Positions 7,920 through 11,700 of a stretch of DNA of 64,000 nt are shown here, in pieces. Origin of the DNA: Candidatus Nomurabacteria bacterium. Lineage in GTDB: Bacteria > Patescibacteriota > Minisyncoccia > Phycocordibacterales > UBA918. Under the pieces are notes generated by a model, which did no database searches, was not told the DNA's origin, and saw nothing but the letters and a program-made list of their open reading frames with translations. Location: positions 493,634 to 557,633 of the forward strand of contig CP060227.1 of NCBI GenBank assembly GCA_023898525.1, read 5' to 3'. Position 1 is the first letter of the stretch; each line of letters begins with the position of its first letter. Both the position numbers and the translations under genes were made by a program.

Positions 7920-8914
7920 CTACCTATTATACCTTGAACTAACTTCCATTCTCAATTTTTTTGTATTACCATGTGAAAGTAATCCAAGATAAGCTTGCAC
8001 AACCTCTTCTTTACCGTCTTTTATCGTTAGCTCACGAAACATTTTTCGTTTTGTCGACGTCCGTAACACACGGTGTCTGGGAAAGTGTACCCAACCCAAG
8101 AAATCAACTCCACTTGCCAGAGTCTCAATTGATATTTTATTTGGATGTAACTGTAGCGCCAATTTCTCTTCGAGAAATTGGCGCAGTCCCAAAAAAGCTC
8201 CACCAAATACTCCTTATCCCGTGACAACACCACAAAATCATCAGCATACCGAATATAATATTTGGCTTTGAGTTCGTGTTTCATAAACTGATCAAACTCA
8301 TTCATGTATACATTCACCAAAAGTTGGCTGGTCAAGTTGCCGAGTGGCAAACCTTTATTTGGCTGAATTTGAAAACTATTAATCACTTGCCCCAGCAACC
8401 AAAGAACGTCTTCATCTCTAATGTGCTTTTGTAAGATATCCAGTAGAATTTTATGATCAATGCTAGCAAAGAACTTTTTGATATCACACTTGAGTACCCA
8501 ACAGGTTTTGGTGTGATTTTTTGAAACTATGACGGAGAAGTTTTTGAAGCGCTGAATAGCTTCATGTGTTCCTTTACCAACTCGACAAGAATACGAATCA
8601 TAGATGAATTTTTTATCAAAGTAGGGATAGAGCTTTCGGTAGATAGCGTGGTGGAGCAAACGGTCACGGACACTCGCTTTGTGAATGTTGCGAGGTTTAG
8701 GGTCAGAGATATTGAATGCTTCATAAGTTCCGTGTTTGTATGTTTTGTTTTTTAAATCTCGGTGTAGATCAAAAATGCTATCCATCAAAGTGTACTGAAA
8801 AACTTGCACATCTTTACGCTTACGCTTTCTGTGCAAAAACTCTTCCCACGCGCCAAGAAGATTATCGAGAGAAATGATATTATGGTAGGTAATGTCAGGC
8901 GCAAACAAAAACAT
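7920..8914 (-). pseudogene. DGR reverse transcriptase, split by a frameshift at a T6 run (plus-strand A6 at 8191-8196)
   Basis: The motifs are FASIDH, LPLGNLTSQLL (DGR-specific GxxxSQ) and IRYADDFVVL (YxDD). The N-terminus has HGTYEAFNISDPKPRNIHKASVRDRLLHHAI. The C-terminal thumb (LHPNKISIETLASGVDFLGWVHFPRH) continues in the -1/+2 frame (track ORF 7920..8192). One extra T would fuse the two ORFs into a ~331-aa RT. Confidence 0.8.
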
Positions 8915-9302
8915 ACCTCAGTCTACCCCCCCCCGCGCGCGACAAATTCAACAACCTAGGTTGATTCCGGTCGTCTTGAAGTTGAAAGATACGTATCGTG
9001 TATGGCAGGAGTACCTTATATCTTTTCCTAAGCAAAACCGCTACACGCTCGGTAACAAGATTGACGACGTATTTTTACTCGCCATTGAGTACTGCTTCTT
9101 AGCTAGTTACGCCAGCAAAGACACAAAGCTGATTCACCTTGAACGCTGTATATCACGGGTCGATTTATTGAAATTGTTGCTTCAACTTGCCTGGGAAATA
9201 CGCGCTCTTGATACCAAGAAATACACGGTACTTGGTGAGCGGCTACAAGAAGTCGGTAGAATGCTTGGTGGCTGGAAGAAAGGCATTGAAAGTAAACGAT
9301 GA
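8892..9302 (+). CDS. avd: DGR accessory variability determinant (Avd), four-helix-bundle / 23S-rRNA-IVS protein family
   Basis: The C-terminus LQEVGRMLGGWKKG closely matches Bordetella phage bAvd IAEVGRILGSWIAR. The central GNKIDDVFLLAIEY..LL helices fit the family. It is divergent from the RT. The ATG at 8892 overlaps the RT start, and an alternative TTG start at 8961 is possible. Confidence 0.7.
   Translation: MSGANKNIPQSTPPRARQIQQPRLIPVVLKLKDTYRVWQEYLISFPKQNRYTLGNKIDDVFLLAIEYCFLASYASKDTKLIHLERCISRVDLLKLLLQLAWEIRALDTKKYTVLGERLQEVGRMLGGWKKGIESKR
8926..8934. repeat. Poly-C(9) tract followed by GCGCGCG in the divergent avd/RT 5' region
   Basis: The only long C/G homopolymer in the window. 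It sits 12 nt from the RT start codon, inside or just upstream of the avd 5' end. Confidence 0.6.
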
Positions 9303-9429
9303 AATGAAATTTATTCGTCCAGCAATTTCTTCTAGAAATGGAAGAAATTGGGACGTAAATTCGCAATATTCGCTTGCGCTCGTTTGCTCATTTAAAAAAC
9401 TCCCCACGTTAAGTGAGGAGAAAATGGTG

Positions 9430-9547
9430 TGTTGCTGTACCACCAACCGATGACGATTGTCGGCATTCCAGACGTTGTCGTTGTCGAAGCGGTTGACGTT
9501 AGCCTTGAGCTTGCCATCATCCACATTGACGTTGGCAACGAACAGAA
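9430..9547 (-). repeat. DGR template repeat (TR), 118 nt
   Basis: It is 102/118 identical to the VR. All 16 mismatches are plus-strand T in the TR (adenine in minus sense) against A/C/G in the VR. Minus-sense translation shows the typical AAC(Asn)-rich template VANVNVDDGKLKANVNRFDNDNVWNADNRHRLVVQQH. Confidence 0.9.
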
Positions 9548-9792
9548 ACGATATGTGAAATGCGCCATCTATACCACCAACCATTGATCATAAGTGAACA
9601 AGGTTTTGTATTTTACGCGGGACCTCAAAGTCCACCAGCGCACTTCACCAACAAACTATTTTTTAAAAGAAACTAACATGTCCACACTTTACGCAACCGT
9701 GATCACGCAAACTCCAAGATATGCTGTCTCACTCACAGACTTCCACAGCCGTAGCCGTAAAATAATATCTGTGGCTTCATAAGTATACAAAA

Positions 9793-9823
9793 GTCCCCTG
9801 AACACGCGAAGTGCCCAAGGGAC
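9793..9823 (-). other. GC-rich imperfect hairpin ~30 nt 3' of the target stop (candidate DGR target-recognition hairpin)
   Basis: GTCCCCTG...CAAGGGAC with one mismatch. Its position relative to the VR end is analogous to the BPP-1 hairpin/cruciform. Confidence 0.3.
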
Positions 9824-9850
9824 AAAGGGTCAAAGACCAAAGTGCAGAGG

Positions 9851-10438
9851 TCAAACAGTCTGTTGCTGAACCACCAACCGACGACGATCGTCGGCATTCC
9901 AGACGTTGCCGTCGTCGAAGCGGAAGACGCGAGCCTTGAGCAGGCCAACATCCACAAGGACGCGGGCAACGAACAGAACTCCGTTCACCTCAAACAAGAA
10001 GAACGTACCGTAGCCACCTTGCCGGAGTGAGTCGCGATGATTGCGACAGAACTCTACAATCTGCCCTTGCGACAGCGCAAGCTGGCGTGGATCGCCGAGC
10101 GACTCGAACAGCGTTTCGTATGTGCCGTTGCGAGTCATCTCGTGGACATCGACCGTGACCTCGTTCGTGTCTTCGCCGGAAACATCAGTACTCCAGTTCT
10201 TGAAGTCACTGTCGAGGTAGCCAGTGAAGACATCCTCAGCTTCTGCGAGCGTGACACTGCCCTGAGTAGGGGCGAGGGTGACGGTTTTGAGGCGACGAAG
10301 GTATTCACGCTTCTCTTCCAGAATCTGCTGCAAAACATCGGCAACAGATTCGGCGTCGCGCACTCCGTCAACCACCATCATGTTGATTTTTGTCTGCAAT
10401 TTAAACAGACGCTCAATCGTTTTGGTGTCATTACTCAT
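9851..10438 (-). CDS. DGR target protein (195 aa) with C-terminal variable region
   Basis: The ORF ends with the VR. It has no signal peptide and is unusually small for a DGR target. Its fold is not assignable from sequence here. Confidence 0.75.
   Translation of the reverse strand: MSNDTKTIERLFKLQTKINMMVVDGVRDAESVADVLQQILEEKREYLRRLKTVTLAPTQGSVTLAEAEDVFTGYLDSDFKNWSTDVSGEDTNEVTVDVHEMTRNGTYETLFESLGDPRQLALSQGQIVEFCRNHRDSLRQGGYGTFFLFEVNGVLFVARVLVDVGLLKARVFRFDDGNVWNADDRRRLVVQQQTV
9861..9978 (-). repeat. DGR variable repeat (VR) at the 3' end of the target gene
   Basis: See the TR entry. It encodes the C-terminal VARVLVDVGLLKARVFRFDDGNVWNADDRRRLVVQQQ of the target. Confidence 0.9.
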
Positions 10439-10622
10439 GACATTCTCCTTTCAATAAACCATTACTCATGGTCTGCCAGAGGGCCTAACTACCTTATGTA
10501 GGTTTACCATAGCTTGAAATCAACAAACTTTTGCTGACTTGAAGCTACGGTAAAAAATAAAGAACAATTTGTTAATTATAACATGGTTAACGTTTTTAGT
10601 CAAAATTACGTCCCTGAATTCT

Positions 10623-11642
10623 CACCCTAATTGCACAATCCTTTGCACCCTAATTGCACAGGTCAAGATGACATACATACTGCTTTTGTATGTCACACAA
10701 ACAAATAGGACCGGAAGACTGGCCGGTTATTTCACGTATGCTCAAAGCGGGATACTCAGGAGTGGAGATTGCGCACATTATCAACAAAGATCCAAGTGCG
10801 GTTAATAGACATATTAAAGCGTATGGTGGTCGGGATAGATACGATGCTCGCGAGGTTCGCAGAAAGAAAAAACAGGCACGTATCATTGCTATGGAAGGTA
10901 CTAGAATACTCAAAGGAGTATTATTACGAGAAGTGAAACGATTATTAAAACAACACTACTCACCGGAACAGATAGTCGGAGTACGTGATGACATCTCTGC
11001 GAGCACTATCTACCGATACATTAACGAACGAGCTCCACACCTTAAACAATTTCTTCGTTCTCAGAAAGGCAAGTATCGGCGCAAACGAGGCACCAAAATA
11101 CGTGAAAAAGTTCGTGAAAGAGCCAAGAAACGTCGTATTGATGAACGACCGCCCATTATTGAACGTCGCTCCCGTTTGGGAGATTGGGAGGGAGATACTA
11201 TGCTGGGAAGAGACAAACGAGTACGTATTGTCACCTTCGTTGATCGCAGAAGCGGGTATCTAATTGCGTATCTTCTGCCAAAATTAAATGCTACTTTACT
11301 CACTAAACTGGCGGTGGAAAAATTCAGGCGTATACCCAAAAACAAACGAAAGACCGCTACCTTTGATAACGGTACCGAGTTCAGTGACTGGGAACGGTTT
11401 GAGAAACAAACGAGTATGACTGTGTACTTTGCTTATCCATACCACTCTTGGGAGCGTGGTACCAATGAAAATACTAACGGGCTACTTCGACAATATTTTC
11501 CGAAAGACTTGGATTTCAACACCATTACTCCACAAGAACTTTCTGAAGCGGTTCGTCGTATAAATCATCGTCCTAGAAAGAGACATAATTTCAAGTCTCC
11601 ACATCAGATATTTTGGAAGTGATGGTCTGTGCAATTAGGGTG
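10623..11642 (+). mobile_element. IS30-family insertion sequence (~1 kb) with a duplicated left inverted repeat
   Basis: The left ends are CACCCTAATTGCACA at 10623-10637 and again at 10646-10661. The right end TGTGCAATTAGGGTG at 11627-11642 is their reverse complement. It encloses the transposase gene. No clean target-site duplication was found. Confidence 0.75.
10690..11622 (+). CDS. IS30-family DDE transposase (310 aa)
   Basis: An N-terminal HTH and the DWEGDTMLG...FDNGTEF...YFAYPYHSWERGTNENTNGLLRQYFPK...INHRPRK catalytic core, typical of IS30. Confidence 0.85.
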   Translation: MSHKQIGPEDWPVISRMLKAGYSGVEIAHIINKDPSAVNRHIKAYGGRDRYDAREVRRKKKQARIIAMEGTRILKGVLLREVKRLLKQHYSPEQIVGVRDDISASTIYRYINERAPHLKQFLRSQKGKYRRKRGTKIREKVRERAKKRRIDERPPIIERRSRLGDWEGDTMLGRDKRVRIVTFVDRRSGYLIAYLLPKLNATLLTKLAVEKFRRIPKNKRKTATFDNGTEFSDWERFEKQTSMTVYFAYPYHSWERGTNENTNGLLRQYFPKDLDFNTITPQELSEAVRRINHRPRKRHNFKSPHQIFWK

Positions 11643-11700
11643 GTGATTCAAGGTTCCGCTAGATTCTAGTCTGAAAAGCAACAACATCTAATTCCAGCAC

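Follow-up and report, generated by a model that had tools for sequence, protein, structure and literature searches.

The DNA analysed here, called the window below, is a stretch of 64,000 nucleotides from a Candidatus Nomurabacteria bacterium (assembly GCA_023898525.1, contig CP060227.1, positions 493,634 to 557,633) that carries a diversity-generating retroelement (DGR). Its parts follow one another in the order target gene with variable repeat (VR), template repeat (TR), reversed avd and reverse transcriptase (RT), with the TR, the VR, the target gene and the RT on the minus strand and avd on the plus strand. A repeat search of the window returned a direct repeat of 126 nt with 85% identity, the copies lying at 9422-9547 and 9853-9978. 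All 16 mismatches within 9430-9547 have a plus-strand T in that copy and any base in the other, so the TR is the copy at 9430-9547 and its adenine-bearing sense is the minus strand, the same as that of the RT and the target, just as an earlier note on this DNA had read it. AAC and AAT codons are abundant in the TR as read from the sequence, and the VR (9861-9978, minus strand) is 86% identical to it, with 16 differences that all stand opposite TR adenines. The target gene (9851-10438, minus strand), delimited from the list of open reading frames (ORFs) and the repeat comparison, encodes 195 amino acids, of which the VR at its 3' end supplies the C-terminus; this ORF gave no Pfam or NCBIfam match.

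The RT (7920-8914, minus strand) was recognized by the Pfam family RVT_1 (5.5e-23) and by the motifs GNLTSQ (LGNLTSQ) and YADD read from its translation. Its frame is broken at an A6/T6 run (8191-8196) into two ORFs, 8027-8914 and 7920-8192, which one added T in the run would join into an RT of 331 amino acids, and related RTs keep a single uninterrupted frame through the equivalent site. The break could mean that the gene is truly a pseudogene, that the run is a slippage site or that the sequencing was in error. Because of this frameshift the present activity of the window element is in doubt, the element being either now inactive, or dependent on slippage, or recorded with an erroneous sequence.

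The avd gene (8892-9302, plus strand) encodes 136 amino acids as the longest ORF, with an uncertain true start, and has relatives in other genome contigs. Its product scored 53.1 bits (5.1e-14) against the Pfam family bAvd (PF22296), above the curated cut-off of 40, and 68 bits (7.3e-19) against NCBIfam DivGenRetAVD, short of the model cut-off of 80. The earlier note had placed this plus-strand avd inside the TR-RT interval, with correct coordinates and strands, and a scan of the whole 64-kb window revealed no second RT-like or TR-like sequence and no further Avd candidate on either strand, including any better one on the minus strand. The cassette combines the hallmarks of a DGR, namely TR/VR differences limited to adenines, an RT with YxDD and (I/L)GxxxSQ motifs, and an Avd.

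The cassette within its lineage

Relatives were collected through an Avd protein scan of species-representative genome contigs, in which 116 candidate stretches encoded related proteins and 80 were kept. The Avd proteins of these 80 loci are 41-92% identical and encoded at the same position, and nearly all come from metagenome-assembled genomes (MAGs) of Patescibacteria, the closest being Paceibacterota and other Patescibacteria. An RT was present in 75 loci and a detectable TR/VR pair in 65. The RT stands head to head with avd on the opposite strand in 75 of 75, and the TR follows just beyond the avd stop, in the sense opposite to avd, in 65 of 65. In 64 of the 65, 305-416 nt separate the TR from the VR upstream of it, and adenine-only differences between TR and VR were likewise found in 64 related loci.

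This arrangement corresponds to architecture B3 of Wu et al. 2018 (NAR 46:11, PMC5758913), written in that paper as "TR-(avd)-RT" with brackets for the reverse strand, and given there as 90% of 126 candidate phyla radiation (CPR) DGRs and as nearly absent elsewhere. With a TR, a reverse-strand avd, an RT and no other accessory gene, the window is identical in order and orientation to B3 as described there, and its host group is the same. Particular to the window copy are the frameshifted RT, about 90 extra nucleotides between a post-TR hairpin and avd, and, next to the target gene, an IS30-family element. The layout is the norm of the lineage and not a new architecture. Its description as non-canonical in the earlier note therefore holds relative to the prototype from Bordetella phage BPP-1 and fails for CPR, where B3 is standard; the reversed avd, present in all related Patescibacteria loci compared, is real and not an oddity of this genome.

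The same counts bear on the idea of a local accident without mechanistic meaning, be it avd inverted in this genome, an assembly error or the relic of a decayed element. Signs of decay do exist in the RT frameshift, the IS30-family element and the loss of the RT in a syntenic locus, L001. Such an accident is nevertheless barely credible, as it is contradicted by the identical order and orientation in all 75 loci from many independent assemblies, by the publication of the layout as B3, and by the conservation of spacings and junction features.

L001 (Paceibacterota MAG JAWKSP010000001.1, 5056-7586) shares with the window the series hsp20, peptidase-like gene, avd, TR, target gene and rplS. Its RT gene is wholly missing and the N-terminal part of its target protein differs; its TR and VR still show 16 differences, at adenines only. 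A second locus, L007, likewise has no RT.

The distance from the TR to the avd stop separates four loci from the rest, being 119 nt in the window, 142 in L001, 80 in L003 and 70 in L006, and at most 35 nt, negative in a few, in the other 61. Comparison of these gaps, together with folding, delimited an extra non-coding segment in the window (9303-9393) with a long hairpin at about 9375-9310; such a segment occurs only in these four loci, and the long hairpin is found in the window and L001. The Avd proteins of the four end in GGWKKGIESKR, and in other loci Avd extends into the post-TR hairpin. Between the window and L003, 10 of 10 TR differences at positions other than A are mirrored in each locus's own VR, and between L003 and L006 29 of 30 are mirrored. 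These mirrored differences imply past DGR activity, in that retrohoming would have continued after the loci diverged, despite 70-140 nt of additional sequence between hairpin and avd.

At the other end of avd, its ORF and the RT start overlap head to head by 23 nt, and the junction carries a C9 homopolymer (8926-8934, plus strand; G9 on the RT-sense strand). Across 76 loci, a C-run of 7-12 nt, most commonly 9, occupies the same junction position in 66. Where an RT ATG was found, the run is 7-14 nt away from it in roughly half of the loci and at least 20 nt away in the others. In no locus is the avd frame interrupted along the run, and an in-frame ATG upstream of it exists in only 26 of the 66. 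The tract may be a phase-variable or slippage-prone switch, possibly one that turns the whole system on and off; no literature linking DGRs to homopolymer switching was found. A promoter scan and the junction comparison gave no convincing separate RT promoter within avd and no convincing avd promoter within the RT.

The 40 C-run loci with no in-frame ATG upstream of the run could be taken to mean that the plus-strand ORF is spurious or unexpressed and that a different accessory factor serves the DGR, as could the NCBIfam score below its cut-off and the absence of the exact protein from the public collection searched. A non-functional Avd is nonetheless very unlikely, since the Pfam score exceeds its curated cut-off, relatives recur at the same position across the kept loci with the frame open in every one, and the window holds no other candidate.

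The RNA surrounding the template repeat

Shortly past the TR, the TR-sense strand carries a terminal hairpin, CUCCUCAC-UUAAC-GUGGGGAG, followed by UUUUUU (9394-9420, minus strand), which was identified in a terminator scan and is kept in relatives. In the window the hairpin, with an 8-bp stem, occupies 9420-9400 and the U-tract 9399-9394. When the loci were anchored on AGTTT, a CUCY...RGAG hairpin with an immediate UUUU appeared on the TR-sense strand 0-20 nt past the TR in 65 of 65, and a strict hairpin scan detected it in 63 of the 65; of random 80-nt windows drawn from these loci, 1.4% gave such a hairpin. In the anchored alignment, the first four residues past the stem are T without exception. 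The two outermost pairs of the stem are also invariant and the inner pairs covary, with 85 alignment cells changed on both sides compared with 21.9 after shuffling and at most 15 with partners slid; as the stems had been picked as hairpins, the covariation is informative and the percentage paired is not. An initial MAFFT/RNAalifold treatment gave only four pairs, with the 5' arm out of register, and was replaced by the anchored analysis.

In most loci the loop and the 3' arm of this hairpin overlap the avd stop and last codons. In the window, L001, L003 and L006 the hairpin stands 70-140 nt away from avd, and both its sequence and the U-tract are retained, so avd codons by themselves do not account for the U-tract. 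The combination of hairpin and U-tract suggests an intrinsic terminator at which the TR RNA would end before avd. Of the two solutions offered in the earlier note, a TR transcript that ends before avd or an atypical spacer, the former is thus favoured at the level of suggestion by the hairpin and U-tract kept directly after the TR. A stem-loop of about 9 bp just downstream of the TR was reported in 207 of 278 Avd-encoding DGRs, CPR included, by Handa et al. (bioRxiv 10.1101/2023.10.23.563531), who took it for the equivalent of the stem-loop that Avd binds in the BPP-1 RNA. The terminal hairpin is probably what they counted, to which the invariant U-tract is an added observation; by analogy of position, a role in binding Avd is predicted for it.

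The competing explanation is read-through, in which the post-TR hairpin would be an Avd-binding stem-loop or a leaky attenuator, and the RNA would continue through antisense avd, as a long spacer, into the RT, as in BPP-1. The survey just cited predicted, for the same 207 DGRs, upstream/downstream duplexes together with the stem-loop, which agrees with read-through; a U-tract kept invariant across all 65 loci, the four with a non-coding one among them, does not. Nor did 70-140 nt inserted between hairpin and avd stop retrohoming.

A search of antisense avd for comparable signals was largely negative. RNAalifold analysis of the TR 3' end with the 190 nt downstream returned only five invariant pairs, UGGAA/UUCCA, without covariation. 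This match of an invariant TR UGGAA to an invariant UUCCA in antisense avd can be counted for read-through; the lack of covariation and the variation of avd at synonymous sites (third codon positions vary across loci) count against it. The 40 nt upstream of the TR and the 100 nt after the hairpin showed no locus-specific complementarity, own-locus pairing being no better than cross-locus pairing (469 and 513 of 3000 permutations as low). Candidate duplexes between these 40 nt and 100 nt of antisense avd were large, inconsistent and loop-filled, formed equally well across loci, and were rejected. Beyond its stem-loop, a spacer of the BPP-1 type, with conserved structure and a strand that pairs upstream of the TR, was not found downstream; partners for the TR 3' end and for the segment upstream of the TR were found in a leader 5' of the TR, with covariation.

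This structured leader of the TR RNA (9548-9776, minus strand) belongs to the VR-TR spacer, whose 305-416 nt represent a narrow length range with conserved blocks, and the leader RNA itself would measure about 230 nt. Upstream of it stands a -10-like box, TATACT (9782-9787, minus strand), in columns conserved across 64 loci, with the family consensus TTTTG(N)TATA(A/C)T and a position following the hairpin and T-run of the target gene. The box resembles an extended -10 element and is a putative promoter of the TR RNA. No conserved small ORF was seen by eye in the spacer among 245 six-frame ORFs (stop to stop, at least 45 amino acids), and Rfam contained no family for the leader or the hairpin (window region searched up to E = 1, eight related loci at gathering thresholds).

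For the consensus structure, 64 loci were aligned with plain MAFFT, without fitting to any structure, and submitted to RNAalifold, which yielded 47 pairs in seven helices, all on the minus strand. In the window these are H1 (9762-9754/9749-9741), H2-4 (9730-9702/9697-9669), the 12-bp helix H5 (9648-9637/9566-9555), H6 (9635-9629/9624-9617) and H7 (9605-9595/9590-9579), and a primer-like strand (9662-9649) is located just 5' of H5. Standard pairs account for 93.4% of the leader cells, compared with 41-49% when partners were slid by 1-3 columns; cells changed on both sides number 789 against at most 219, and covariation scored 0.744, the slid partners giving 0.18 at most. In none of 500 shuffles was any of these values equalled. 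The leader contains invariant or near-invariant G-U pairs (in 64, 60 and 56 of 64 sequences), which would turn into A-C mismatches on the opposite strand; this assigns the structure to the TR-sense strand. Folding of window positions 9776-9392 alone reproduced the helices of the consensus. The idea of an atypical spacer thus survives in part, as conserved structured RNA does flank the TR; it is located 5' of the TR and not in the TR-RT interval.

An invariant UUG closes the leader segment directly 5' of H5, and this segment complements the last TR nucleotides and the linker before the terminal hairpin. The minimum-energy fold of the window contains the corresponding helix, P0, between 9662-9649 and the TR 3' end with linker (9434-9421, minus strand). 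Among 58 distinct loci, leader/TR-end duplexes had a mean energy of -5.34 kcal/mol within the locus and -3.89 kcal/mol across loci, and no permutation was as low as the own-locus value (0 of 5000, and 0 of 3000 in a repeat). H5, included as a positive control in the same energy test, gave -14.9 against -5.3, and the same leader strand had no own-locus advantage with antisense avd (815 of 3000 permutations as low). Compensatory variants were visible by eye, with AGUUG/CAACU in most loci, AUGCGU/ACGCAU in the group L014-L025 and UUCUU/AAGA in L071, and the distal part of the helix occurs as ACAG/CUGU, ACAU/AUGU or ACAA/UUGU. Because linker lengths vary, a covariation scan column by column gave a blurred picture, and the energy permutation test is the evidence relied on. 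Support for the pairing is moderate, and P0 is a candidate template:primer duplex in which priming may take place, the priming nucleotide being predicted at or beside the invariant UUG (9651-9649).

A proposed self-contained RNA compared with BPP-1

Taken together, the cassette is best explained as a chromosomal CPR-type B3 DGR whose TR would lie in a self-contained RNA of about 380 nt that ends before avd and whose leader would supply BPP-1-like elements, an explanation given a probability of about 60%. The structure of this RNA is well supported and the mechanism moderately supported. The TR would not be part of a long transcript into the RT and would instead have its own minus-strand non-coding RNA gene, consisting of the -10-like box (9787-9782), the leader (9776-9548), the TR (9547-9430), a linker of about 10 nt, and the hairpin with U-tract (9420-9394). 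Termination would most likely occur at this hairpin and U-tract, about 90 nt short of the avd stop codon. With avd outside the TR RNA, its orientation would be irrelevant to priming, and avd and the RT would be expressed divergently from the junction with the conserved C/G homopolymer.

The leader would provide the elements that are located 3' of the TR in the Bordetella phage DGR. Its UUG-ending strand would pair with the TR 3' end and linker and be followed directly by the 12-bp duplex, the other strand of which lies 7-15 nt upstream of the TR; beyond it would lie a short hairpin, then an A-rich single strand, then another stem-loop, an order that would be that of the BPP-1 spacer circularly permuted. 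Only the stem-loop at the Avd-binding position would stay 3' of the TR.

The window and BPP-1 (Handa et al. 2018, PMC6182149; bioRxiv 10.1101/2023.10.23.563531) share an RT with GxxxSQ and YADD motifs, Avd, an adenine-specific TR/VR pair and a stem-loop directly 3' of the TR. The set of RNA elements looks alike as well, comprising a duplex of the TR 3' end that adjoins a duplex of about 12 bp near the TR 5' end, a short hairpin, unpaired adenosines and a longer stem-loop. The avd gene of BPP-1 is encoded upstream of the TR on the same strand, whereas that of the window is reversed and downstream; the BPP-1 spacer elements lie in 140 nt 3' of the TR and the RNA continues towards brt, whereas here the RNA appears to stop after the first stem-loop, with the other elements 5'. 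The BPP-1 RNA runs from an upstream stop strand through the TR, the Avd stem-loop, the primer strand and two nucleotides to a downstream stop strand, a short hairpin, adenosines, a single-stranded ring and the RT-binding stem-loop (Handa et al., bioRxiv 10.1101/2023.10.23.563531). The order in the clade of the window is primer-like strand, 0-2 nt, 5' strand of H5, H6, an A-rich single strand (CAAAUAA.AUACAG), H7, 3' strand of H5, 7-15 nt, TR, linker and terminal stem-loop. The H1 and H2-4 domains have no BPP-1 counterpart.

A stronger version, held tentatively at somewhat less than even odds, is that the RNA of CPR-clade DGRs is a circular permutation of the BPP-1 RNA, in which the 3' Avd-binding stem-loop doubles as a terminator and the whole constitutes an independent, retron-like RNA gene. 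Encoded 5' of the TR would then be the priming strand and the stop duplex as well as the short hairpin with its adenosines and the RT-binding stem-loop. No description of such an arrangement with a 5' leader was found in the literature searched, and the passages of Wu et al. 2018 (PMC5758913) that were consulted contain no discussion of a promoter, a post-TR terminator or an RNA structure for B3. The organization of the DGR RNA in this clade is apparently undescribed.

Several observations weigh against a self-contained RNA and its likeness to BPP-1. The promoter and terminator are read from sequence features, and intrinsic terminators leak. The equivalence to BPP-1 elements would follow from order and shape and not from sequence homology. 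The leader/TR-end helix is A-U rich and energetically weak, and its longest ungapped run barely separates own-locus from cross-locus combinations (5.28 against 4.98 bp). A G-rich part of the leader (GGYGGUG...GAUGG) complements the antisense of the Gly-Gly-Trp codons of avd (CCANCCNCC); both segments are invariant, which places their pairing beyond covariation testing. Moreover, the RT and avd starts overlap or abut and no clear RT promoter is apparent, which would fit co-transcription of the RT with the TR.

The last two points are also what read-through can claim for itself, the want of intergenic room for an RT promoter being its main argument and the conserved G-rich/C-rich complementarity between leader and antisense avd GGW codons a further one. 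Against the invariant U-tract, the lack of covariation in antisense avd and the covarying partners in the 5' leader, continuation of the RNA into the RT is judged unlikely, and an RNA ending before avd is preferred.

In its topology this proposed self-contained RNA is similar to the msr-msd RNA of retrons. The latter is also a self-contained non-coding RNA, its priming part is structured and located 5' of the template, and its 5' region forms a duplex with the RNA 3' end that puts the primer beside the template 3' end. The likeness noted is one of topology. Retrons use a different RT clade and lack Avd, adenine mutagenesis and retrohoming into a target gene.

The target-gene flank and implications for CPR elements

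Directly 3' of the VR and stop codon of the target gene lie tandem repeats (TGNNCCTT-like; 9825-9860, minus strand) with units of about 8 nt that end in CTT. Related loci carry 3-6 such 8-nt units between the VR/stop codon and the target-gene hairpin, as exemplified by L017 with GGACCCTT GGACCCTT AGTCTCTT AGACCCTT. The CTT-to-CTT spacing is exactly 8 nt in 97 cases across 65 loci, and 37 of the 65 loci have two or more spacings of 7-9 nt, compared with 1.2% of random windows. The units might serve as a target-site recognition element for retrohoming. Next to them, a 13-bp G+C-rich hairpin with a T-run follows the target gene (9788-9823, minus strand), found in the terminator scan and kept in position in the 64-locus alignment; it could be the terminator of the target gene, a hairpin flanking the initiation of mutagenic homing (IMH) site, or both.

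The 3' ends of the repeats differ in a regular manner. In 25 loci the TR end reads CGAAAC or CGAAAT and the VR CGCAAC or CGCAAT, so that a TR A faces a VR C, and no other base occurs at this position in any locus with both motifs (e.g., L063, L076, L053 and L028). The difference looks like a fixed donor-recipient difference of the IMH* versus IMH kind, or like codon selection, rather than like random adenine mutagenesis.

About 170 nt upstream of the target gene lies the IS30-family element (10612-11653), bounded by 26-nt inverted repeats (10612-10637 and 11628-11653) and encoding a transposase (10690-11622) with an rve integrase core and helix-turn-helix domains. It is absent from the syntenic locus L001. 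A strong promoter-like site found in the promoter scan (10603-10575, minus strand) adjoins its end.

The layout itself, another copy of a catalogued architecture, adds nothing new; the RNA organization proposed for it could matter more. Work on the DGR priming mechanism all comes from one phage element, in which essential flanking RNA trails the template, and a review calls trailing RNA the general model. The CPR lineage may hold a large share of natural DGRs. If its members assemble the same ribonucleoprotein around a permuted RNA, predicting DGR RNAs as "TR plus 100-140 nt downstream" would miss those of CPR, and the minimal RNA for moving CPR DGRs into engineered mutagenesis would be the segment of about 380 nt from promoter to U-tract. 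The permutation would also amount to a natural test of which RNA connections are needed by the RT-Avd complex.

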